A stretch of DNA of 64,000 nt from Albugo candida (GCA_040437565.1 JBDOQK010000023.1:310001-374000); one strand, 5' to 3'. Shown: positions 13,138 to 51,500, counted from the first letter of the stretch. The notes: generated by a model not told the origin, from the letters alone. Made by a program: numbers and translations.

Positions 13138-15220
13138 GTTGAAGGTGTCTATATTACTAGAATCAGACTAACGGACTTCTCTAGTTGTCTAGGCTATTTT
13201 AAATAACATATATACATATAAAAAACATTTCGTGAAATACCTGTGAGAGATGATAATATGTCGTCTCGTTGATAATCCCGTATCGTGGTAGCCTCAGCAC
13301 CCTTAATACGAGACTGTGTCCAGCTTGTAAATGCTGTAAAGCTGTAAAGCTGTAAGATTGGTCCAAAAGTACCGTGGTTTGCGAATTGGTGTGCGCCACA
13401 CTATGGTGAGCATAACCAGCCAACTAGGACTAGGATCTGAGTTGCACTTGTCTTTTGACTTGTCTGTGCCGTACCCGCAGTAATGATCTTCGGCTTCTGA
13501 ATATTCCACCAAATGATCCTTGCGTTGCGAGTTGTTCCAAAACTTTAGCAAGCCGAATGCGTTCCGCTTGGTCGTAACACTGTCTTCGAAAGTACCGAAC
13601 GTGAGCACGAGTTGCTGATCGCCGATCGAACAAACAACGATTTCGATCTGTCCTTACGAAGTGCAGTGTCACCGCTTGCAATGCAAGCCATAAATCTGAG
13701 ATAATGTCTAAATAGTCTTTCNNNNNNNNNNNNNNNNNNNNNNNNNNNNNNNNNNNNNNNNNNNNNNNNNNNNNNNNNNNNNNNNNNNNNNNNNNNNNNN
13801 NNNNNNNNNNNNNNNNNNNNNATGTCGGGCTGAATATCCTTCAGGAACCAGAAACGAGATCGAACTGGCAACATCCGAAAGGCTAGAAGAAACTGTAGAT
13901 CTTCGTAAATAGGTAATACACGTTTTCGAAGATGCCGTGATGTAGCCATAAAAGTTCGAACTCGTTCGGAATCCAGTGCGTCCGATCTCTCCCGTGTTGA
14001 CCAATGTGTCGACATCGGATGACTCCTGGTTGGTTCGGGAGGTTTCCAAACGATTCGTGAGAGTTGTGAATGTGGAATAGATGGAAAATAATGTTTCCTT
14101 TCCTTGGTTTTTACTCCCACATAAAATGATCTGCCACTTGTGGTTGGTGTAATTCAAGTGATGAGACCAATCGTCGAGTGGATACGCTGGAGAATCTGAG
14201 TGACTTCATCGTAAAGTCGACTCAGCAACTTTGCTTCAGACATATTCGATGTGTTCAGCTCTTCATCGATGTAATACATGTCGACAGAATCTTCCTTCGT
14301 TGGCCATGTGTCGCTTTCACGAAAAAAGTCTTGCAAACTTCGAACGTCGAAAAGTGTAGCAAATGTTTTTCGAAATGTTCGATGTGGTTCATCGACCATG
14401 CCAAGATTGTACCAAACGTTTTGCGTACTCGGATTGCGAGTAGCAGCTTTGTAATGTAACTTTTGGTCGCAGTGAAACCACATCGGTTGTTCCATGTAGA
14501 ACTGACGGCGTTGTGAAACATCTAAATCTGAACTTGTAATACTCCAATCCATCTGATGCCACATTCTAAGTGCTTGTTTACGCCTTGACGATATACTCCC
14601 CCATTAAACCATTTTCCCATGTCGATTTGGTGCAATGGTGAATATATTCATCGGCTTGTGTGGTCCAAAGGAAGGTTGAATAAGTTGTAATAATTCCGTC
14701 GAAGCAGGTATCCAATTCGCAGGAATACTTGTTGGCGCATCGGATGCGAACTGCTGAAGGAATTGAATATGTTGTAACTTTAGTCGTCCCACCAAAAAAG
14801 GAACTTGTAGTCCACCATCTTGTCGGCGAAGATATAAAAATTCCTTGCCGATCAGGTGAACATGTTTTGAATCTTTCTTGGCTGGATCAACCGCTTCCCA
14901 CACTGCCAGGGACCCGTTTCCCAGTCGACTGAGCTGGAGCAGACCCACCAGCCGATACTAGTCTATGTTCGCTCTCAATTTATGAGGTAGCGTGCGATTG
15001 GTCACCCATGTGCCAGAGTTCATACTAGAACGGGCAGACAATGTAGTCGATCCGATTGAATATAGGGTGGGTGTTCAGAGTGCCTTACTTCCGATTTTTG
15101 CGCTAGAGTCGCCAAGAATGAAGCATAATTTGTGTCGAAATTGCTGTTTGGTGCGTTGTTAAGTTTCGTAAAGTTAAAGCTGCGAGTCTTTCTGAATGGG
15201 GGCATACACGTTATGAACGT
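13138..15220 (-). mobile_element. Degenerate LINE (L1/Tx1-like, oomycete type), internally deleted
   Basis: APE remnant VHNVYAP at ~15200, post-RT motif LYLRRQDGGLQVP, and C-terminal DLQFLLAFRMLPVRSRFWFL. Its 3' end matches the one at 43261. Confidence 0.85.
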
Positions 15221-16401: not shown

Positions 16402-19069
16402 GGGATCCGCTAACGACCCATCACTTTTCGCTAACGACCCATCACCCCCATATTTCCAGCCAATCATAGACCTCCAGCGGCTTTCCAGGAGAGTCGCGAT
16501 ACAGTACTTTTTAATACAGAAATAATTCATCTTTTAAAATTGGTGTTATTGTTCACGTTGCAAAGCAACGTGGATTGATGAAATCTAAGCTTATTCTAGA
16601 TATATATATAGTAGATTTCCGAAAGAGATATAATTCTATGGACTAAGATGTGATCCCAGGCATCTGTGGGCCAGCCTGGGTACTTCCACTCGTCAGCAGC
16701 GCCAAGCGCTGCAAGATTGCCAGCTGCTGGTAGTGCTGCTGCTCTTAGTGCTGCCGATGCAGGTGCTACTATTGGATTCAGGCAACTCCTTTGATTGTGG
16801 CCAATCTGGCGACAGTTTTCGCATCTTCTTTGTCGCTGTGAAGATGCTTCAACATGCTCAAACTGTGAGGGGTCCCTCTGCGTGGCTGATGTAGGGATCC
16901 TCCTGCTTAGCGAACCAGCAGGTCGGCCACGAGCTCGGATTACAACAGAGTTGTGTACTGTGGCATTAGGTAGTGTTGCAAGGTGGTCACGAATCATCCG
17001 GCGGGGAAATTGTGATGCTTCATTGAATTCATTACGAATTCTCTGCAGATCTGCGTCAATGGATTCATTGTTGTTTGCTTCCAGTAGTGTAATCGCACAA
17101 GCTGGCTTTACCAACCACCAATGCTGGTGGAAATACTCGCAAGCCAGCGGAGATGAAGTGCGGAGGAGATGCTTGCAGGGATGCCATGGGTTGATTGAAA
17201 GTTACCTGAGCATTCGCCTGCTACTTGTCGCTGTTGGTATTGTTTAAAAGCCAGCTTCAATGCGGTCACAGAAATCTTGCCCATGACAGCAGCAAAAGTT
17301 GCCCCAAATTGTAAATAAGCGGTAGCCCGATCCAATGCTGTTTGCTGACGAATTGATGCCAGCTGACCCTCACAGGCAAGCTTGCATGCTGTATCCACTG
17401 TCAGAAGATCGCCATTGGATGCCCGAATTCACTTTCTCAATGTTGCATGTGCACTCTCTACTCGTGAAGTTGTGGTATTTCCAAAATGCAGCTTGCCACG
17501 CAAGAGGTAATCCACAAATCGGTCTTTGTAGATGAGCCATGTCTCTTCATGATATGTCATGACATAACGGGGGCATTCGGTGCGCATTGATGCCATCTGG
17601 GTCTCGTAGTTCTCTGCAGTTTTTGACGAGACAAGTAGATTCCATGCTTGGTTAAGCTTCTGGAAAGCTTCTATTGATGCAAAGGTTTTCGCTGCTTGCT
17701 CAGAGTATTCTTGCTGATGTGCCAGCGACACAGCAAAAAATTTGCATTTGGGAATACTCTCTCTAGTGCATTCATCAGCACCAGCTCGCGATCAGTGACA
17801 AACGTAGTATATGTTGGCAGAGAGAACCTGTTGAAAACCTCACGGATGAGGCGCACGGCCCAAAGGTAATTGTCCTCGTCTTCTGCTGACATGAAGCAGT
17901 ATGCAAATGTGAAGCTTTGGCCAGTAGCGGTAACTCCAACAACATGTGCAATCGGTAGACCAAAGCGATTGGTCTTGTACGTTGAGTCAATGAGCCAGAT
18001 CTTGTTGGCGCTGTATTTGATACAGATTTCTTTTGCAGATGCAGAAACAATAAGCAGGTGAGTGAGCTTGCGCTCATCATCAAACTGGGTGAAGTATGGA
18101 GTGGAGGCATTCGCATCCAGGCTGTCAAGTAGGGCAGCAAGTGATGAGCGTCCACCCAAAACACGCCGTCGCTTGGCTTGCTTGATGTTGTAAATGTCAC
18201 GGGGTGTGACAAAGACATTTTTCCTCCACATGCTTTCCACAATGCGGATAGGTGGGAGACCATCAAGGATTATACCAAGAACCAGAGCGCGCTGTTCATT
18301 TGTAAGTGCGCGACCTTGTGGATGAACCTTGGGGTCCACAAAAGCTTCATGATTGTGGTCATGCCTGCCAAGCTCTACCATCCATTCAAGTTCTGCACGC
18401 CGACGACTCAACAAGCTAAACTTGCAAGCGGTAGCGCGACTTCCTTGTATGCGTTGACGCTGTTGTTGCTTTAAAGAAGTGGTCCGTAGTCTTCCACTGC
18501 ACGAGCATGCTAGGTCAAGTCCTTTGACTTCTCCAGAGGGTTTGTTCCCAACGTGTCTGGTGCGCAAGATGGTCATTATATACCCTTCATCTTGGAACAA
18601 CTTGTTAACCGCATCACGGGCTTCCTTCAAAGTACCAAATACATGGTCAGGAAGAGATTCAAGGNNNNNNNNNNNNNNNNNNNNNNNNNNNNNNNNNNNN
18701 NNNNNNNNNNNNNNNNNNNNNNNNNNNNNNNNNNNNNNNNNNNNNNNNNNNNNNNNNNNNNNNNACTTGTTAACCGCATCACGGGCTTCCTTCAAAGTAC
18801 CAAATACATGGTCAGGAAGAGATTCAAGGTTAAGGGGGTTCATCGTTGATATGATAAGGCTGACAAAGACTGATATGAGTGGAGATCGGAAGTTGGAAAG
18901 AAGATGGCAAGAAGATGGCAACTATGAACTTGGCAAAGGTGAGCTATTTTGTATTCTGGAAAAATACTGTATCGCGACTCCCCTGGAAAGCCACTGGAGG
19001 TCTGTGACTGGCTGGAATTATGGAGGTGATGGGTCGTTAGCGAAAAGTGATGGGTCGTTAGCGGGTCCC
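16402..19069 (-). mobile_element. Mutator-like (MULE) DNA transposon with long TIRs and frameshifted transposase
   Basis: ~130 bp TIRs (GGGATCCGCTAACGACCCATCAC.. / ..GTGATGGGTCGTTAGCGGGTCCC). Imperfect 9-bp flanks caagataaa/aaaaataaa. Transposase motifs HNH, IDSTYKTNRFGLP, VTDRE, LLCRWHI, TTSRVESAH and a C-terminal CxxC..GHN..C knuckle. Confidence 0.93.
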
Positions 19070-20608
19070 AAAAATAAATTGTAGAGTAAGATTTTTGACA
19101 CCTGAGCGGCTCGCGCAACGGGTCACAAGTTTCCAAAAGAGAAAGACTAAGCGCTATCAAAATTAGAGTGCTTACATTTGGTCACGTATAACACGTAAGG
19201 AATGCTACCTACCATATGCTGCTTGGCATTTGTCCTCTTATGGTAGACTGGATCTCAATATTTCATCGTCTACATCGCAAAAATGGTTTGGAATCAGTGT
19301 TCACCTTCATTGATGTATGGAACGATGCGCGAATAAGTATGCTGACAAGCAATCTGGACGCGAGCGCTATATCAAGATATCACATTGCCATTTTTTGCGA
19401 GATGGCTTGGATGCACTATAGTCAGCATGAAAGATAGCAGCACATGAGAAAGCATCAGTCAATCACAAGACTAAGGCAGCGGATCAAATACATGAAGAGC
19501 ACCGGTCTCTTGAGATTCATCATCGTCCCAATTATATGTAGCAGCTTTGCAGACATCCTTTGAATGAGAAAAACGTGAACTATACTCGCTGCTTCCTACG
19601 ATGATTGAAAACTTGATCGATATGACTCTTTTCTACATCATCAAAGTTATCTTGCGAAGCATTTTGAGATGGGTGTTTGCTGACGGGATTAAGTTTCTCA
19701 TGTGCAGTGCTGTATATATAAGTAATAGACCGAATAGAATCGAACCGAATCGATCGAGAAGCAACAGGTTTGCAATACGGATTGAGTGTTGCTACGAGAA
19801 GCAAACTATCTATCGCACGACAATTGTATGCTCGGATGTAATCTTCTCACGTTCCCACTACTTTGGCGATGATCAACTCAGTCTAGTTCGATGAGCCTTT
19901 ACTGCTCTCCTCGTCCCAAGCTACTGCAAGGTAAGAAGAAATTCTTTTATATTTGACTAGGTGCTCCGTTTTACGAGTTCATGTATCTAGTAGAGTCCTA
20001 TAAGAGGGCACCTCTCACCAAAGTCGATAGAATGCGTCGCGCTCAGGAAAATCAATGGTTGTGGAAGCAAGCCCATTACGTTAGCTACGTGTGGTGGTCT
20101 CCGGATTAGACTACTCGAGGCCCTTGATCGGAGGGTTAGAATAATTTAGAAACACTACGCAGCAGTTCAGAGCAAAAGTATGTATATTACTTTTCTAAGG
20201 TCCATAGTTCACTGTACTCGTAGCCTAAGCCTTAAGAAACGTTCCGCCCACAGCCATTGGTTTATTGTCCAATAGACATGAACAAGACTGATGTGTGCAA
20301 CACATCTACTTGTACTGTAATATCAATAATACAATGATGTACAGATACGTTACATATCCGATTGGTTTCCATTTACCCGCCATTATCCACCACACTATGC
20401 AATGATCTCAATATGAGTATGTGAATTGCTCACGTTCTTTACGTAAGTCCACTTGTATAGAGTTGTAACAACGTATTCTGCCACTGATGATGACACGACG
20501 TAAGAACTACTGTCTGCAGCGATGCAAGAGGTCAAGCTTCCAACTGCGTCTCATTCATTATTTTATCCCATTTTGTACTGGAAAAACCAGATCAAGCCGT
20601 TAGATGAC

Positions 20609-21746
20609 CTAGCACTGAGCACCTCGGCGGCTTTTTGCGAAAAACCATTTATTTCGTTTTCTCTCATTCCAGGATGTAGAAAGTAATGCTTTGAAGAAGC
20701 AAAATGAGTTTTTTTCTGGATGTTCTAACGTAGAAGTACGACTAACCCAGCCATGCGCGTCCTTACGACGTCGAGACTGTCGAGTTTTCGAACACGCTTC
20801 TCCGAAGTCTCTCACTGGTGTTCTTCCTATCCCAATCATTGCTGACGCATAATGCACGATGTTGTCGAGCACCTGTTGATTCGCTACACCGCAGGCGTCT
20901 CTCACGGCAACCAAGTAGAGATAGTGTTCTGGCCAGCTTCGCTTAGGGTCCTTACGCGCCGTAAAGACCTGTATCGACTGGGATGCCGTGAACATGGTCT
21001 AGAAAGTCTGCAGTAGCCTTTTCATGACGTTGCCTAGTGTCGGTATTTGTGTCCACCACACATCCAACTGCTTGTTGTAATACCGTTCTGCGGTGCCGCT
21101 CAAATAGTGTCCAAGCAAGTCAGCTTTGACTTCTTCCGACCAGGCAAAACCGCACGCGTGCTTTGCCGTTGTGACCCGTCTCAGGAACGTTTGCCCCCAG
21201 TCAAGGAATCCGGAGCCGAGCCCATGGTAGAGCTCGCTCCCGTCAAACTTCCTGATTGCCAGCTTTCGCTGACGTGCGTCTGGAACTTGACGCACAGGTC
21301 CCGCTGCCTGGTGCTGATGCCTCTGCTGCGCGGGGAAGCGCTGACCCGGCTTCGCTGCCACGTACTGCGGCCCGAGTGGCTCAGCGTGCACTTCTTGCGC
21401 CGGCGACGCTTCTTGTCGCCTCGGCGGCGAGTTTCTCAAGCGCGTTTAGATTCATTGGACCCGCGTTTCCCATGTTTCACCCGATCAAAGAGCTAAAAAG
21501 ACCGCTCTCGATCGTGCCTCGCAGTCGCTCGTTCTCATTGATCTGCTTCTGAGACGCTTCCATGCTCTCCATGCGACCTTCGAGCCCCATGAGCATCTTG
21601 AGGATCCTTTCGTTTACGTCCGCGCTCCTTTCGTGGGCTGGCGGGTCGACGACAATGGCAGATGCCAGCATGGCCCTTTCGTGGCCGGTAATTGGCGGCG
21701 GTTGGACCGTGTTTCTGGTGTCGTCGTAGTTTGTACCTGGGCTCAT
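20609..21746 (-). mobile_element. LTR retrotransposon gag remnant (oomycete copia-type)
   Basis: [24 protein letters not shown]...[22 protein letters not shown], followed by RKDPKRSWPEHYLYLVAV, with internal stops. Confidence 0.75.
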
Positions 21747-43218: not shown

Positions 43219-44682
43219 AGTAGGAAGTGCTTTAATAATGTAAAAGTGCATTATTATACCTGTTGAAGGTGTCTATACTACTAGAAATTAACTAACTGAC
43301 TTCTCTAGTCGCCTAGGTTATCTTAAAAACATACATACATATGAAAAATACGTTTCGTGAATATATAGATGAGACATGATAATATGTCTGCTCGTTGATA
43401 GTCCTGTAGTGCATAGCCTCAATCACCACGATACGAGATATGTCCAGCATGTAAATGATAGAAAGCTGTGAATATTGTCCAAAAGTACAAAGTTTTGCAA
43501 AGGGGTGTGCGCCACAATACGCTGAACGTAGCCATCCAACTAAGACTAGGATACGAGTTGCACTTGCATGGTGACTTGTCTATTTCGTACCCGCAGCAAC
43601 GATTTTCGACCCCTGAAAAAACTGCCGAATGATCCTTACATTGCGAGTTGATCTAGTGCCTTGAGAAGCCGAATGCGTTCGTCTTGATCGTAATTACCGA
43701 ACGTGCGCACCAACCGTGGTCTTGATCACGGAAAGCGGTGAAATTGTCGGAGTTGCTGACCGCTGACCGCTGACCGCTGAACGAACAAAACGACGATTCC
43801 GATCTGTCCAGACGAAGTGCAGCGTCACCGCTTGCAATGCAAGCCATAAATCTGATATAATATGCTGATATTCTTTCCATGCCGGCCGTATTGCTGGCAC
43901 AATTGCACATACATTATGCGTCCAACGTGGTCGAGAGGAGAGAAATTGATCCCATCTAGGGAGTAACTCCCTCCATAACTGTGCCGTGTGATCGCATTCT
44001 AGAAAGAGATGTTGATAGGATTCCATTGCCCCACACGAAGGCTGCTTGCACAATATAATGTCGGGCTGAATATCCTATAAGAACCAGAAACAAGATCGAA
44101 CTGGCAGTATGCAGAAAGCCAGACGAAACTGCAAATCTTCGAAAATTGGCAATACACGTTTTTGAAATGCCGTGATGTAGCCATGAACGTGAGAACTCGT
44201 TAGGAATCCAGTGCATCCGATCTCTCCCGTGATGACCAATGTGTTGACATCGGATGACTCTGGACTGGTTCGGGAGGTTTCCAGACGATTCGTGAGAGTT
44301 GTGAGCGTGAAATAGATGGAAAATAATGTTTCCTTTCCTTGCTTTTTACTCCCACATAAAATGATCTGCCACTTGTGGTTGGTNNNNNNNNNNNNNNNNN
44401 NNNNNNNNNNNNNNNNNNNNNNNNNNNNNNNNNNNNNNNNNNNNNNNNNNNNNNNNNNNNNNNNNNNNNNNNNNNNNNNNNNNGCGGTAATGGTCCTGTA
44501 AATACTTTTTCAGTCGGATGTTGAATTCGCCAAGCGTCTACCACACCCAACTGTGAAAGCCATTCCAAACACGCTAATCGACTTGGTTCGTGTCGAATTG
44601 TTCCACTCGAAGCATCGATAGCTGGATCGCCTGTGGTTATGCCCTCCGCTACCTGCTTCAACGTCTACCCAGCTGCCCGCTT

Positions 44683-44866
44683 TTCGCTGCTTGACAGCTG
44701 TACTTGCCGTCGCACCCACCGTAGCATTCGACCAGACGTCCGCATGAACCTCGCTACGACGTACCCCGCCTACCTGCAAGACGCGAGGCACCTGCCGAGC
44801 CCGCACTTCGTTCACCCCGCCTGCCTCTACCCGCTCACTGCAACCCGCGAGGCGCAGGCCGAGCTC
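44683..44866. repeat. 184-bp GC-rich repeat, copy 1
   Basis: Identical to 47208-47391 but with a different upstream flank. Confidence 0.8.
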
Positions 44867-44966
44867 NNNNNNNNNNNNNNNNNNNNNNNNNNNNNNNNNN
44901 NNNNNNNNNNNNNNNNNNNNNNNNNNNNNNNNNNNNNNNNNNNNNNNNNNNNNNNNNNNNNNNNNN

Positions 44967-45188
44967 GTCAACGTCGGTGGCATACACCTGCGCGTCCATG
45001 ACAAGGAAGGGAACCGTGCCACTGCGACGTTTGGTGGGAAGGCATCCTTCACGGAGCCAGCTGTTACGAGGGAATCCTTCTGCGATGGGACGGTTACATC
45101 CGCTCTCTCGCTAGCAGGTCTCCAGGGAGATGCAGACCCGAGAATGGCCAGCGTGGTGCAGCACATCGTGGTGGCGACGAGTTTTTAA
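44967..45188 (+). CDS. 3' part of an ORF resembling the RNAP beta'/RPB1 C-terminal region H
   Basis: Own translation ..KEGNRATATFGGKASFTEPAVTRESFCDGTVTSALSLAGLQGDADPRMASVVQHIVVATSF*, compared with RPB1-type GGLTSVTRHG..GALMRCSFEETVEILFEAG..DD..GVSENVILG. Confidence 0.55.
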   Translation, partial: VNVGGIHLRVHDKEGNRATATFGGKASFTEPAVTRESFCDGTVTSALSLAGLQGDADPRMASVVQHIVVATSF

Positions 45189-45388
45189 AACATGCTAGCG
45201 GCGCTTAGGTAGCGCGATGACGTAGGAACGCTTGCCTGAGGGTGGGTTAGCTGGCCCTGCTGGTTGAGGCTCTGAGGTCTCGACGCTTTGCAGGGAAGTC
45301 TTAGCCGAGAACTCGGAGGGAGCGACGTCCTCGGGGTCCTGGTCTGGCTCCTAGTGTTCGACCGACTCCTTCTCCTCGACGTTGACGT

Positions 45389-45848
45389 ATGCAGGCGACC
45401 TCGATCACAGCGAGACGCCTGCATACGTATGAGCTGAGTGAAGTCGACAAGCTGACTCTGCAACTGGCGAGGAGCAACACGTCGATGTCTCAGTATGCGG
45501 TGAGTCTGCGCAACTGCATTTCGGGGAAGCGTGGGTGGCTCAAGTACGGCTGCATGGGATTTACATCGCTGGGCACCGCGAGAGGTGTCGCTACGTGCGT
45601 CTGGACCGATCCCTACTTCGAGGTCTGGCTACCTTCTCGCTGGGCGGAGAGGATGATGGTGCCCATGCGCTTGGAGGAAGGCGAGTACACGTCTCCATAC
45701 TACAGCTGGCGGAAGGTAAGGGAGGGAGACTACGCAATCTTGTCGCGGTGCCCTGTCCTCTCGCATGAGTCTGTCAGATGTGTACGTCTACGGTTCTGGA
45801 ACGAACCAGCGATTGGAGTGCATCCGGAGTACTGTGCACCGCTGAACC
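45389..45848 (+). CDS. Divergent RNA polymerase beta'/RPB1-like subunit (regions B-D), cut by a gap at the catalytic motif
   Basis: SLRNCISGKRGWLKYGCMG..TARGV (cf. [22 protein letters not shown]), REGDYAILSRCPVLSHES (cf. D.VLFNRQPSLH..S) and AIGVHPEYCAPLN (cf. the segment just before NADFDGD). Confidence 0.85.
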
Positions 45849-46109
45849 NNNNNNNNNNNNNNNNNNNNNNNNNNNNNNNNNNNNNNNNNNNNNNNNNNNN
45901 NNNNNNNNNNNNNNNNNNNNNNNNNNNNNNNNNNNNNNNNNNNNNNNNTAATCCTTGCCGACTCCACGCCGATGTTGCGACGATACTCCACGATGCCCCC
46001 GTTCAGGCAAACCAAGCTAGTCATCTACCCGGTGTCCCACGCTACGCCCACTTGCAGCATGTACGTCGGCTTCGTCACCCCCTGCAACCGATCTGCGATG
46101 TCCTTCTCG

Positions 46110-47204
46110 TCAGCCGCAACCATGTACGGCACTCCACGTTCCTCGAGATAGCCTTTTCGATACCCTCTCTCGCAATACGGTGGCGTCACAGTGTGGGCGG
46201 AACCAGGTGTCCGACGCCGTAATCTTCGAGCCTGGTCGCATCGTCGCTGTCCCCTCCGACACAGGGTGGTAGACGATCGATCGAGTCGGGAACAAGCCGT
46301 CCACGTTGACCCGCTCGCTGACGACTATGCCATCCTCGTAGTTGTGACGCATGTTCGCGAAGACGACGAGAAGGGGAATGCCTGGGACGGAGAGCGGTCT
46401 GTCGGTTGGAAGTTGCTCGATGACTTGCTGCATGAAGGGTGTTCGAACGACGGGAAGGTAGGTCGCAGTCGAGGCAATCGTCGACGTCAACTCGACACGT
46501 GGTTTGCAGATCGCTTGCGTGCATATGGACGATGCGAGGCCTGGTCTCGGTGGCTCATCGTCGGCGAAGAAGGGGAAGAGGTGGAAGAGCGTACGGCTGT
46601 TGTCGCGGATGTCTGCGCGAGAGGCTCTCGGGACGCCAGTGAGCAAGAGCAGCATCGCAGGTGTGTTGTAGCAGAGCGAGTCGACCCATGCGAACTCGCT
46701 GGGTGACAGGCAGGGCACACGCTTCAGCAAGCAGCCGGACATAGCGTGAAGCAGGACAACCTTTGCGGGCTCGAAGACGTCTAAGCTGGGAGCGTTACGC
46801 GAGTCAAACGTTCGCCAGGTGGACAGCAGAGACGTTACGCAAGCATCCGAGATTCGAACAGACTTCGACGAGAAGCAGAAAAGCCAGGTCTTCTGTTCCG
46901 CCACACGAGCGTCTTTGTGCACCTCGCCGAGTAGCTGCCGTGTCTGCTCACACGTCTCAGCGGTGAAGCATCTGTACATGCAGCCGTGCACGACGGAGCG
47001 AATGCGTCCCGCTTCCAGTCAGTCGCGGGAGGAAGCAGTGCAGAGGGAGGGCGAGTAGCTGCAGGCCCAGCTGTGAGAGTCGACGCAGGCAGTGCTAGGC
47101 CTTGAACTACTCAGCAAGAATAACCGTTGGGGCGTGTGTGATGCATAGCGCTTCGCACTTAATTTTTTTCAGCGACCAACGTCTCTCAGCCAGTACGTCT
47201 CGTG
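46110..47204 (-). pseudogene. Divergent RNA polymerase beta/RPB2-like subunit fragment
   Basis: FPFFADDEPPRPGLASSICTQAI (cf. IPFPDHNQSPR..QSAM.KQAM), LPVVRT, and PGIPLLVVFANMRHNYEDGIVVS..DGLF (cf. G.N..VA...GYNQEDS...RGLF). In frame upstream is ETYWLRDVGR*KKLS (cf. ETPEG..CGLVKNLS), with two stops. Confidence 0.85.
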
Positions 47205-47207
47205 TGC

Positions 47208-47830
47208 TTCGCTGCTTGACAGCTGTACTTGCCGTCGCACCCACCGTAGCATTCGACCAGACGTCCGCATGAACCTCGCTACGACGTACCCCGCCTACCT
47301 GCAAGACGCGAGGCACCTGCCGAGCCCGCACTTCGTTCACCCCGCCTGCCTCTACCCGCTCACTGCAACCCGCGAGGCGCAGGCCGAGCTCNNNNNNNNN
47401 NNNNNNNNNNNNNNNNNNNNNNNNNNNNNNNNNNNNNNNNNNNNNNNNNNNNNNNNNNNNNNNNNNNNNNNNNNNNNNNNNNNNNNNNNNNCATTCGACC
47501 AGACGTCCGCATGAACCTCGCTACGACGTACCCCGCCTACCTGCAAGACGCGAGGCACCTGCCGAGCCCGCACTTCGTTCACCCCGCCTGCCTCTACCCG
47601 CTCACTGCAACCCGCGAGGCGCAGGCCGAGCTCCCGAGTTTTTGAACACGCATGTCTCTGCCTGCTCACTGCAACCCGCGAGGCGCAGGCCGAGCTCCCC
47701 TCTTCTTCACCCTCGACCCTTGCTTCACCGAAACCGCGAGGCGGCAGCCGAGCTCACCCCGACTTCACCCACGACCCTCGCTCACGCCTCACCACTTGCT
47801 CTCGAACCCAGCTAACCCGCCTAACCCCCT
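47208..47830. repeat. 184-bp repeat copy 2 plus iterated CGCGAGGC-N4-5-GCCGAGC motifs
   Basis: Motif copies at ~47549, 47613, 47676 and 47735 in a C-rich tract. Confidence 0.75.
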
Positions 47831-48554
47831 TCTCGCCTGGAAGATGTCAGACCTGGCCCGGTAGTCGCGCACAGTCTTCAACGTCTGACCATCAATCAGA
47901 GGCACCGATGACTTGCTTGTACGCTGAAACGCCTCCATCAGGTACGCGTCTTGCAGCACCTTCGGGATGGGGATTGGCGGCTTCGAATTCGCAGCGAGGA
48001 TAGAGAGAACCCTCGTAAGTGCGTTGAATCGATCAGACAAGCCNNNNNNNNNNNNNNNNNNNNNNNNNNNNNNNNNNNNNNNNNNNNNNNNNNNNNNNNN
48101 NNNNNNNNNNNNNNNNNNNNNNNNNNNNNNNNNNNNNNNNNNNCAGCACCTTCGGGATGGGGATTGGCGGCTTCGAATTCGCAGCGAGGATAGAGAGAAC
48201 CCTCGTAAGTGCGTTGAATCGATCAGACAAGCCCGACTGGTAGCTCCGGCACTCCCTGCTTTCGACTGCATCCCTTACGCAGGTGACCAGTCCGATGATC
48301 ATCGCGGAGAAGAGTTGCATGTTCTGCGTGTACCTGAGTCCCCGCGTTGGGCCGTCCCCGCACACAGATGTCTCTGACCCCGCTGTTGAGACGAAGTCTG
48401 GTGCACACCTCCCAGGCGACACATCCACCAGCGCGTACTGGATGTCTCTCGTCCTCGTCTCCAGATCCGCTAGCCTGTCCATGATGCGCTCCTGTGTCAA
48501 CGAGATCTTGCTCACCAGCGTCGATATCTTGCGAATCTCGTTCCTCGCCGACAT
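47789..48554 (-). CDS. Orphan ORF of the foreign insertion (~190 aa after collapsing the gap overlap), N-terminal coiled-coil-like segment
   Basis: MSARNEIRKISTLVSKISLTQERIMDRLADLETRTRDIQ...; the gap flanks 47955-48043 and 48144-48232 are duplicates, so the frame is continuous. Confidence 0.55.
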
Positions 48555-51500
48555 GTGAGCAGATCGTCCCACACACATGCTGCAGGAGTGGTGTGTGAAA
48601 TCACCAAATACAATATGTGTTGCGGTCGATTTAAAAGTGTTGGAAAGCAATAACTCATAAAAACCCACTCGTTCCTCGGCCGTGACCGGTGCATATACAT
48701 TGTGAATATACACCGGTGCATCGTGAATGAGAAGACGCAAAACCAAATAACGATTTCGAATGCTTCGTTCGGTAAGTTCTTCAGCTGTTGAGTAACCGGG
48801 AAANNNNNNNNNNNNNNNNNNNNNNNNNNNNNNNNNNNNNNNNNNNNNNNNNNNNNNNNNNNNNNNNNNNNNNNNNNNNNNNNNNNNNNNNNNNNNNNNN
48901 NNNTTGAAAAAAGTTGTTTTTTCGAGTTGTTTTTACTAAATTGGCGGGTTATTTAGTAGCCGGCAAATTAAGAAGTGCCAATCACAGCTCAAAAAATTAT
49001 ATTGTTGCTAAATCGCCAGAACTGGCGAAGCAGCAAATAAAAATTATACCTTTCGCGCAGCCGACCCCACGTGGTGACATTTTTCAGCGTATCAACTGGA
49101 AGATCTCATATTACACCCTTCGGAGAGTATTTGAACAGGTTAGTTTATAATATTCCTTTGTTTTTTCCAATCACTACAGTTTCACAATGACAGCTAGAAA
49201 AAGCTCGATGTCCAATGGCAACCGGCGCGAACCCATGCTCCTCTACTTTTATTACTAGATATATCAACAAATAATAAATAATTCTATAAAAAACGATTTT
49301 TATAGAATTATCAGTCACCTTTCCAACATCCTAATCTCTAGAGTGTCTACTATTAACCTACCATATACAGATATCAGAAAAAAAACGTACCTACGCTAGA
49401 GCAATACAACAAAAACAGCGGAAGAAACAGAATGAGCTCGTGTACAAAAGTAGACAGGTGAGCTGATTGGCTAGCGTACTTAGCAATAATTGAGCTGCGA
49501 TTGGTTAGATCAATTGTCTGTGGCCGTAGTATTAATGTCTGTGGCCATAGCGGCTCCCTAATGCAAATGAAGGTATTGCAATAATTAATAAAATCAATGC
49601 TGGAATACTAGTCCAAATACCGGGACACATCAAATTGCGGATCTTAATACACAATCCTTTACGTCTAATGAAAATAAAGACACCATGTACACTGGCATCA
49701 AGATATTGCGAGTTCAGCGGATGCTGAGAAGTAGCCACGTCTCCCAGCTACGAACGGAAATGTATAAGTCCTGAAGAATCCGGTATGAGCTTGCGTGCTA
49801 TTAGACACTTTTCTAAGGTAGTGTTGACCGTATTCGTCATTCAAATCACTCTCACGACCAAACCGACATATGTCGTCAAAAAGCGTGAGAAGCGCCACAT
49901 TGACAGGCCCAGTAAATTCGCGGGCTATTCAGCACAAGAACAGCGACGATTGTTTCCGCATGTTATCGCAATCTGGATCTTGGCTTTACATCCTTACTCA
50001 GGAAATCATTCAAACAGTACAGGACACCATGATGATATAATTCGAACGGTTCTAGCTGATTCTTCCGGCGCCTAGATTGAGGTCTGGATCAATCTACCCG
50101 TATTCGATAACAAATTACAGCTCAAGAAGTCTCCTGCTAATTGAATTGGATACTCAAGATGATAACACGTCGCTATTAATGGTCACGGCATGGTGTCAGG
50201 CAAAAATTGAGCAAAGTCATCATAGTTATAGAAGAACTGAATCAGCTGGATCTCTATCGTGTTAGCCAACAACAAAACTTAAAAGTCTATGAATTCAGCT
50301 AGAAGTAGCACTACTTGTTTTCGGCCTTTCACAATCTTCCATGAATTAATCGACTGTAACCTGGTAGCAAGTAAATTATTGTCCGGACGATGTCAGTGAA
50401 TACAATGGAAGGACTAATCTCCATTTAAGTTGCTTCCAAAAGAAGATTAGAAGACGCACGTTTGCATTTGTCCTGAATGGTCTGCTGTCTGCGTATTTTA
50501 AATTGATTGAAAGCGCCAGACGAAAAGATATTGTCAAGTCGATAACGACTTGTGTCATAATAGTGAGTCTCCAGTAATTTATCTCCGTCATGAAAACCGA
50601 TCCCGATGCAGCTGTAAAGTTTACTTCCATTTCACAATCATAATCAAGTGGAATCATTCCAGTTTCTACTACCCTTATAGAAGTAAAGCATCATCGATCG
50701 TTGCTGCGAAATTGCGGTAAGCTCATCGAAACGTAATCGTAGCACTTCATATTGAACCCAACTACATAGTTCATCTTCATTTTTACCCTTGATGTTGGTC
50801 TGCTCAAGGTACGTATTTTCTGTGTCACGGTGCCAAAAAAAGTTCTATGTGAGACCCCAAAGTATGTATTTTGTAGAATTTTCGCTCTATAAAATAAATG
50901 ATGTTCAAATTGATGGTGACACAAAGGAGCTTAGTAGAGAAATATGGGTGCTTCAAAATACTTGGCGTAGATTGTATCTTCCTCAGAACAAAGCTAGGAT
51001 TTGCAGATTTGTGTCAAGAGCCTACTTCTACATTACAATGGAATTTCATCTTATGCTTTGATCTACCTTGAGTGCTAAGGAGAATCGGCTTTATAACTCA
51101 TCATTCTCAGTTTATTATTTTAAGATCTTTCTGATAGTCGACGTGACTATTTTAATGGAGAGCGAATAGAATGAGCTGGATCTTTGTCAAGAGCTTCCCC
51201 TCCCAATCCTTGACGATTTCCAACTGCTGGTATACCGGGTTAGTCAATCTCAAGTGCCTATGTATGCCAGGTTTTATCGAAATTAATTTCCGAGGCGTGC
51301 TAATTGCACCACCCATGATATTCAGCTATACAGCAATTGATCACCCGGAAAATTGAATCAACGTCGTCTCTACAAATGTTGTAGTCATCTTTTATTTAGT
51401 TAAGTAAAAATCCAATCGTCGCAAAGATCATTGAATATGACACTAGAAGCTTCATCGGCTGAGAGGATAAGGCAAGCGACTAAGAAAGCGGATCAAGAAC

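Follow-up and report, generated by a model that had tools for sequence, protein, structure and literature searches.

A probable broken copy of a DNA element with its own RNA polymerase in the genome of Albugo candida

Introduction

A stretch of 64,000 nucleotides (nt) from Albugo candida (GCA_040437565.1 JBDOQK010000023.1:310001-374000; here called the window, with positions counted from its first letter) holds a GC-rich block with remnants of multisubunit RNA polymerase genes, and this raises the question of what the block derives from and how it came to lie in this genome. A first-pass annotation, made from the sequence alone, read it as a fossil of a DNA virus or virus-like element with its own highly divergent RNA polymerase, possibly of an undescribed lineage. 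Eukaryotic elements known to bring their own transcription and replication enzymes are mainly giant viruses, viruses of the baculovirus group and yeast killer plasmids, and the relationship among these three is an open question. The results reported here indicate that the block is very probably an inherited nuclear insertion, a broken and rearranged copy of a self-contained DNA element, and that it is neither a cellular polymerase gene nor a contaminant.

Results

The block carries fragments of two RNA polymerase subunits

The only parts of RNA polymerase subunits present in the window are amino acids (aa) 93-232 of a beta'/Rpb1-like protein and aa 251-542 of a beta/Rpb2-like protein:

45428-45848, plus strand: beta'/Rpb1-like fragment, aa 93-232 of 604, running into the gap at 45849-45948
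46143-47018, minus strand: beta/Rpb2-like fragment, aa 251-542 of 814, truncated on either side

The beta'-like fragment was 99% identical to the 604-aa protein P0005 (tblastn) and 100% identical to P0108 and P0110. A search of longer proteins with the fragment returned three relatives of 604-605 aa; their identities were 99%, 81% and 51%, and the least similar of them is a named protein of Lobulomyces angularis. On its own the fragment matched Rpb1 domain 2 (PF00623) with an E-value of 0.005 and 17.4 bits, under the Pfam cut-off of 25.3. All three full-length relatives passed that cut-off (40.2, 34.0 and 33.1 bits), as did the orthologue in L081 (30.1 bits), one of three related elements from soil metagenomes described below. 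The full-length relatives carry NLDFDGDE at the position of the cellular catalytic aspartate motif (NADFDGD). The pattern D-x-D-G-D-E was invariant in six of six aligned beta'-like members and was also present in P0109, a 477-aa open reading frame (ORF) of the same copy in other assemblies, which covers beta' aa 112-588 at 96% identity to P0005. In the window copy, the position of this metal-binding motif falls inside the gap at 45849-45948. The longest contig listed for P0109 is 4664 nt, as is that listed for a 289-aa truncated beta-like ORF, and from this shared size we infer that the gap hides most of the remaining beta' gene.

Compared with PDB, P0005 matched 95 sequences at E <= 1, and the 60 shown were all largest subunits of RNA polymerases, aligned over DFDGD; the best single-sequence E-value was 1.3e-4. 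The predicted model of the beta'-like protein had a predicted local distance difference test (pLDDT) score of 47.7, and its Foldseek matches were all RNA polymerase largest subunits with a template modelling (TM) score of 0.15; the model is too poor to tell which parts of Rpb1 are present. No relative of P0005 was found in IMG/VR.

The beta-like fragment was 95% identical over 299 aa (aa 251-549) to an 814-aa protein, its best match in a HMMER search that returned 99 representatives at the 50% identity level, 53 of them at E <= 1e-10 and most about 800 aa long. These relatives appeared once length limits were lifted; a search among proteins of similar size gave no match. A frameshift after aa 549 was considered and rejected, as homology simply ends at aa 542. 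A profile built from the Rpb2-like proteins of the metagenome elements found the fragment at an E-value of 2e-62. The fragment alone had no match in Pfam; it stops just ahead of the Rpb2 domain 6 match of the intact protein (PF00562, aa 550-688). That domain was passed by 15 of the 18 family members scanned, the others being P0052 (19.2 bits), P0100 (in which the DNA polymerase part alone was recognised) and P0091 (an unrelated protein). The family profile A1 matched 81 sequences in PDB, and the 60 shown were all second-largest subunits, with archaeal Rpo2 first (3e-44), followed by eukaryotic Pol III, II and I and then bacterial beta; vaccinia rpo132 (6e-25) ranked below the archaeal, eukaryotic and bacterial enzymes.

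The intact proteins, at 604 and 814 aa, compare with 1100-1700 aa in the solved cellular chains listed, so that by size they do not belong with the host Pol I, II or III subunits. Judged from their sequences and lengths, both subunits are far from any cellular polymerase. The beta' and beta remnants reported in the first-pass annotation were thus borne out, and its view that the element had a highly divergent multisubunit RNA polymerase of its own is supported by the Pfam and PDB matches of the intact relatives.

A probable inherited insertion into a nuclear repeat

The block had a GC content of 59.9% over its 3557 called bases (44630-48586), compared to 43.6% in the remainder of the window, where 112 windows of 500 nt had a mean of 43.6%, a standard deviation of 3.6 and a maximum of 57.2%. 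It is therefore as GC-rich as first described. Contigs of four public runs from four studies were aligned to the block. In all four runs an uninterrupted copy of the host repeat was present in which position 44629 was joined to about 48596, with about 10 nt (AGTGGTGTGT) in between. Since AGTGGTGTGT corresponds to window positions 48587-48596, the insert spans 44630-48586, and the borders given earlier (44630-48595) were right to within 9 nt. Summed contig depth was 1e3-1e5 in the flanking repeat versus 5-60 in the block, where it was low, even and similar to that of the junction contig (52-60 versus 83 in X2).

The right junction was spanned by contigs from three studies (48180-48631 in X2, 48180-48663 in X6 and 48451-48631 in X7). 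The breakpoints at 45428, 46143 and 47018 lie inside contigs, and the stretches containing them were covered in four of four runs with few or no differences. The truncated beta-like ORF was found with the same extent as in the window on at least 11 contigs elsewhere. Four versions of it (that of the window, P0126, P0122 and P0133) share a single breakpoint and the substitutions Y273C and A276T, which were absent from 10 of 10 intact variants; A276T sits at a position that is invariant in a seven-member alignment of the family. The four versions differ from one another at five other sites. The shared breakpoint and shared derived changes, together with this divergence, argue for one old insertion that has been inherited rather than for contamination by a free element. 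These results support the earlier proposal that the element is endogenised, and the contaminant that the first-pass annotation had named as its possible undoing is not what the shared breakpoints and derived changes indicate.

The other features of the insert and its flanks are as follows:

44484-44629, minus strand: left flank, high-copy dispersed host repeat, from summed contig depth
44630-44866, no strand: left end of the insert, with 53 nt unique to this site and then a 184-nt copy of repeat R
44967-45185, plus strand: possible C-terminal end of a g1 homologue (hmmsearch; weak), with a stop codon at 45186
45949-46142, no strand: GC-rich stretch without assigned origin, past the beta breakpoint
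47019-47207, no strand: spacer between the beta-like fragment and repeat R; homology to the 814-aa protein P0008 stops at 47018
47208-47790, no strand: repeat region R, containing a false gap (47392-47491) and a 64-nt tandem repeat
47789-48553, minus strand: truncated homologue of g8, function unknown (g8 profile, E-value 2e-5)
48587-48803, minus strand: right flank, the same high-copy host repeat again, from junction-spanning contigs

Four gaps of 100 N interrupt the block, at 44867-44966, 45849-45948, 47392-47491 and 48044-48143, and more gaps lie just beyond it, at 44384 and 48804. The sequence before the gap at 47392-47491 is identical to that after it (47250-47391 and 47492-47633, 142 nt), as is that around the gap at 48044-48143 (47954-48043 and 48144-48233, 90 nt); because of this identity, both gaps are read as unmerged overlaps of 142 and 90 nt. 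Public contigs extend at least 1353 nt to the left of 44967 and at least 1446 nt to the right of 45848. The N gaps thus conceal at least 2.8 kb of further element sequence, and the size of about 4 kb given to the block at first is an underestimate.

The gaps also bear on whether the block is contiguous. If the internal contigs (44967-45848 and 45949-47391) came from the free element or from a different locus and had been misplaced between the two repeat halves during scaffolding, the true insert would be about 1.4 kb long and consist of R and the g8 homologue. The four gaps, two of them unmerged overlaps, are consistent with this, as is the absence of the left junction among the listed public pieces, and the end of the contig at 44484-44866, identical to 47208-47391, could join directly to 47492 onward. 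However, the internal contigs bear breakpoints that have no counterpart in the intact genes and hence do not come from an intact element. A contig of X6 joins 47113 straight to 47771, skipping the repeat region and tying the contig of the beta-like fragment to the g8 side, overlapping contigs continue to the right junction, and internal and junction contigs have matching depths. A scaffolding artefact is therefore improbable.

Relatives lie on small contigs, with one gene order in the metagenome elements

Many public assemblies contain intact genes for the 604-aa and 814-aa proteins, 93-100% identical and located on contigs of about 17.44 kb; contigs of 17442-17456 nt were listed for seven variants of the 604-aa protein and six of the 814-aa protein. 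The cluster at 81% identity to the beta'-like fragment includes a protein of Albugo laibachii Nc14 and is on contigs of 17.6-17.9 kb. A scan of metagenomes gave four loci representing three distinct elements, L081, L082 and L084, on contigs of 20.3, 23.7 and 24.6 kb from soil. All three have one compact order of about 15 genes: g1 (730 aa), g2 (640-720 aa), small ORFs, g5 (a 465-aa P-loop protein), DNA polymerase B, the Rpb2-like gene, g8-g10 on the other strand, g11 and the Rpb1-like gene. DNA polymerase B is directly upstream of the Rpb2-like gene in each, and the Rpb2-like and Rpb1-like genes are separate, on opposite strands and 3.6 kb apart.

The adjacency of DNA polymerase B and the Rpb2-like gene agrees with three fungal gene models in which both are contained in one protein. 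P0014, P0019, P0020 and P0100, which include gene models from outside the fungi, are such DNA polymerase B/Rpb2-like fusions; in the metagenome elements the two are adjacent, separate ORFs in different frames. The fusions may be merges made during gene modelling.

The DNA polymerase of the elements matched PF00136 with E-values of 1e-37 to 1e-43, whereas its scores against the protein-primed family PF03175 (16-19 bits) were below the cut-off of 25.8. Among solved structures, archaeal PolB and Pol delta and alpha came nearest and poxvirus polymerases lay further off; no phi29-type protein-primed chain was among the 60 best PDB matches.

L081 ends in a perfect inverted repeat of 430 nt (1-430 versus 18927-19356, 100% complementary) that reaches the contig end. 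With the further 486 nt at the other end of the 20,328-nt contig, these arms imply terminal repeats of at least 916 nt. L084 has an inverted repeat of 121 nt at 82% identity, set in from the ends. That the 17.4-kb form is extrachromosomal is suggested by its recurring contig size and by analogy with L081.

Inspection by eye of the g1 consensus revealed a KxDG-type nucleotidyl-transferase motif and a GxGxG methyltransferase-type motif, and g1 matched LEF-4 in Pfam at an E-value of 0.08, which is the sole database support for a role in capping. The g5 protein has a GGEGKS P-loop, a superfamily-3-like motif C seen by eye and a match to AAA_16 (E-value 0.004). Profile searches of PDB gave no match for g1 and one insignificant match for g5 (E-value 0.55). 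From these motifs, g1 is a putative capping enzyme with guanylyltransferase and methyltransferase parts, and g5 a putative superfamily-3 helicase.

The 8-mer AAACATTT occurs in the 70 nt upstream of 9 of 42 genes in L081, L082 and L084, compared to 0.27 expected, and may be a promoter for the element's own polymerase. Related forms, such as AATGCATT and AATCAATT, are found upstream of other genes. The 8-mer was absent from the block in the window.

Pfam recognised no capsid, packaging ATPase or VLTF3 among 18 ORFs (14 of L081 and 4 of L082), a weak test for proteins as divergent as these. The first-pass annotation had proposed inspecting the neighbours of intact relatives for a DNA polymerase B, a capping enzyme or a capsid; the first is present and the second possible, while no capsid was recognised. 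Its fossil of a DNA virus or virus-like element stands as a broken copy of a polymerase-carrying DNA element whose parent, with no capsid gene recognised, may be either a virus or a plasmid. L082 has, near its right end (18495-19412), an extra APH phosphotransferase gene (PF01636, E-value 8e-10) that is absent from L081.

The family occurs in oomycetes, chytrids, a rust and an alga

Named members of the family came from the oomycetes Albugo laibachii and Bremia lactucae, from seven genera of chytrids, among them Lobulomyces, Globomyces, Clydaea, Chytriomyces, Boothiomyces and Zopfochytrium, and from the rust fungus Melampsora americana and the charophyte alga Closterium. The closest relative beyond the genus Albugo was from Bremia. 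A quick tree was made of 37 rows (33 chosen near-full-length proteins and 4 trimmed fusion models, of about 100), and in it the proteins of the Albugo group and Bremia were sisters with a support of 100 in the Shimodaira-Hasegawa-like approximate likelihood ratio test (SH-aLRT), and several chytrid proteins grouped together. P0015, P0138, P0139, P0146 and P0147, from Closterium sp. NIES-65 and Zopfochytrium polystomum, are on contigs of 129 kb to 1.19 Mb, which suggests nuclear integration in these two hosts as well.

Other pieces of the insert and its surroundings

The order and orientation of the pieces in the window are unlike those in the relatives: the g8 and beta-like pieces are on the same strand, and the end of g1 abuts beta' aa 93. 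The g8 piece reads as about 191 aa once the 90-nt duplicate at the false gap (48044-48143) is counted once, and hmmsearch placed its match to the g8 profile at 48180-48332. In alignment A3 the ORF covers the N-terminal and central regions of g8 before it ends early. A search over proteins of 81-259 aa, a range that would miss any longer, intact g8 of the Albugo-group element, returned one relative of this ORF, P0136, at 72% identity. The ORF had initially been taken for a separate beta' C-terminus. It had no Pfam match, profile A3 had 0 matches in PDB and thus none to RNA polymerase, and the protein atlas was uninformative on g8 (best score 0.76), with no link to RNA polymerase; the beta' C-terminus is thus unsupported, and the ORF is a g8 homologue.

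The g1 profile matched 44970-45185 over its positions 655-726 of 727 (E-value 0.11-0.14, 6.8 bits), the best match among 1656 six-frame segments of the window.

Repeat R accounts for the 184 nt at 44683-44866, which are identical to 47208-47391. Within R, 2.7 tandem copies of a 64-nt unit (47541-47712) might derive from terminal repeats of the element. The stretch at 45949-46142 had no similarity to P0008 aa 543-700 when all frames were compared.

The flanking host repeat, read by eye, looks like the endonuclease part of a non-long-terminal-repeat (non-LTR) retrotransposon; a Pfam scan of it gave no match, and the reading as a long interspersed nuclear element (LINE) endonuclease is without Pfam support. 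An 89% identical copy of the repeat on the left flank is located at 13864-14148. Elsewhere in the window, a 148-aa open frame on the minus strand (20999-21445), in a local GC peak of 54%, resembles a retrotransposon Gag fragment by eye.

Discussion

Proposed origin of the insert

In this host group, the parent of the insert would be a small linear double-stranded DNA (dsDNA) element of about 17.4 kb; its distant relatives measure 20-25 kb. The element would encode a family-B DNA polymerase of the cellular and large-virus type, a minimal RNA polymerase divided between a beta'-like subunit of 600 aa and a beta-like one of 800 aa, a P-loop protein resembling superfamily-3 helicases, and a 730-aa protein resembling guanylyltransferases and methyltransferases. 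Like poxviruses and the yeast killer plasmids, such an element would replicate and transcribe itself outside the nucleus, from its own promoters. Scrambled pieces of it would have been captured, probably by end-joining, at a break inside a high-copy host repeat. The captured copy is dead as an element, with beta' starting from aa 93, only aa 251-542 of beta and a truncated g8.

Regarding the parent itself, we lean slightly towards a joint reading, in which the block is the nuclear fossil of an undescribed and widespread group of minimal linear replicons, 17-25 kb in size and ending in long terminal inverted repeats, with oomycetes, chytrids, rust fungi and charophyte algae among their hosts. 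These replicons would combine the smallest known archaeo-eukaryotic two-subunit RNA polymerase with a family-B DNA polymerase of cellular type, an ATPase resembling helicases and a capping enzyme. They would live in the cytoplasm as plasmids lacking a capsid, or else be the smallest relatives of giant viruses, with a live copy in present-day white rusts.

Several observations weigh against this account of the insert and its parent. The left junction (44629/44630) is seen within the window's own contig alone and not among the listed public pieces, which also give little or no cover of 44756-44866. The g1 match in the window is weak (E-value 0.11), and the capping and helicase readings consist of motifs seen by eye and weak Pfam matches. 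The equal sizes of the 17.4-kb contigs could also stem from flanking repeats and not from an extrachromosomal molecule. Finally, members are on large contigs in Closterium (1.19 Mb) and Zopfochytrium (210-225 kb), and integration may be a regular part of the element's life and not an accident.

This last point leads to a second alternative, that the family is an integrating self-replicating transposon like the Polintons and that the block is a decayed product of transposition rather than an accidental capture. The nuclear-size contigs of Closterium and Zopfochytrium would fit, as would the long terminal inverted repeats of one relative and the ends of the insert, which begins with CCTG and ends with CAGG. 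In contrast, a Pfam scan of 18 ORFs (14 of L081 and another 4 of L082) turned up neither an integrase nor a transposase, the junctions show no target-site duplication, and the insert consists of internal gene fragments in scrambled order and orientation that are not bounded by element termini. We consider a transposon more doubtful still than a scaffolding artefact. Hardly credible is a relic of a giant virus (Nucleocytoviricota), as reported in other eukaryote genomes: although members of that phylum typically encode a family-B DNA polymerase, Rpb1, Rpb2 and a capping-like enzyme, and the family profile returned giant-virus Rpb2 genes from IMG/VR (388 of 432 stretches), those matches were 21-31% identical and limited to the conserved C-terminal third, the close relatives are on complete-looking contigs of 17-25 kb with about 15 genes, both subunits are only half as long as usual, none of the capsid, packaging ATPase or VLTF3 proteins was recognised by Pfam, and vaccinia rpo132 scored 6e-25 in PDB versus 3e-44 for the archaeal subunit.

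With capture from a small polymerase-carrying element as the preferred reading, the family brings a family-B DNA polymerase, a split RNA polymerase of half size and probably a capping enzyme together in about 15 genes, in at least four distant eukaryotic groups. With this compact gene set and distribution, the family gives a new basis for comparison when the origin of such systems is considered. Obligate plant pathogens, the white rusts and downy mildews, may carry a resident DNA element that has gone unstudied, and its nuclear fossil is a dated, inherited marker of the association between element and host.

Literature searches, which covered article texts, found no published description of the element family, in keeping with the earlier suggestion of a possibly undescribed lineage. 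A term search of a survey of endogenous dsDNA viral elements (10.1101/2025.04.19.649669) gave no mention of Albugo, oomycetes, Bremia, chytrids, Closterium or linear plasmids. Giant viruses of zoosporic fungi are the subject of PMC13533422. Virus-like elements of the yeast type were extended in 2026 to Zoopagomycota, Mucoromycota and, tentatively, one chytrid contig, and these have protein-primed polymerases and a fused RNA polymerase (PMC13348850). A Kappamyces contig of that article (Fig. S5) might bear on the chytrid members.

Comparison with known systems

As an insertion, the block is similar to nuclear sequences of mitochondrial origin (NUMTs), nuclear sequences of plasmid and viral origin (NUPAVs) and endogenous viral elements, in that it consists of scrambled foreign fragments of foreign base composition, has no target duplication, and is inherited while diverging among isolates. 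It differs from them in its donor, an element family for which no description was found. Pieces of yeast linear plasmids also become fixed in nuclear genomes.

The family shares with the Nucleocytoviricota a family-B DNA polymerase, an RNA polymerase of archaeo-eukaryotic type, probably a capping enzyme, a linear genome with terminal inverted repeats, and relics in host genomes. Nucleocytoviricota genomes are 70 kb or more, whereas those of the elements described here are 17-25 kb, with RNA polymerase subunits of about half the length, and in the 18 ORFs Pfam gave no match to a double-jelly-roll capsid, a packaging ATPase or a late transcription factor.

RNA polymerase subunits of the baculoviruses and nudiviruses are trimmed to similar sizes. 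The LEF-4 match of g1 is a further, weak likeness, as is one neighbouring cluster in the protein atlas with LEF-8 on 33% of its members. LEF-8 and LEF-9 themselves (PF04941 and PF05094) were not matched at E <= 0.1 in eight beta-like proteins or at E <= 1 in three beta'-like proteins. Unlike LEF-8/LEF-9, the active site here (NLDFDGDE) is close to the cellular motif, and the hosts are not arthropods.

Another close parallel is given by the pGKL2-type linear plasmids of yeasts (PMC6211774, PMC13348850). These are likewise small linear dsDNA molecules with terminal inverted repeats (seen here in L081); they encode a DNA polymerase, a two-barrel RNA polymerase of reduced size and a capping enzyme (putative here), and have no recognised capsid gene. 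The yeast virus-like elements are more than 75% A+T according to Kast 2015 (PMC4431711), in contrast to a GC content of 46-60% here. The present elements also differ from the yeast killer plasmids in having a DNA polymerase of the PF00136 type, with scores below the cut-off for the protein-primed PF03175, in having separate beta and beta' subunits where the yeast plasmids have one fused protein, and in having a P-loop protein that resembles superfamily-3 helicases. Unlike the yeast elements, they occur in oomycetes, in chytrids, in a rust and in a charophyte alga.

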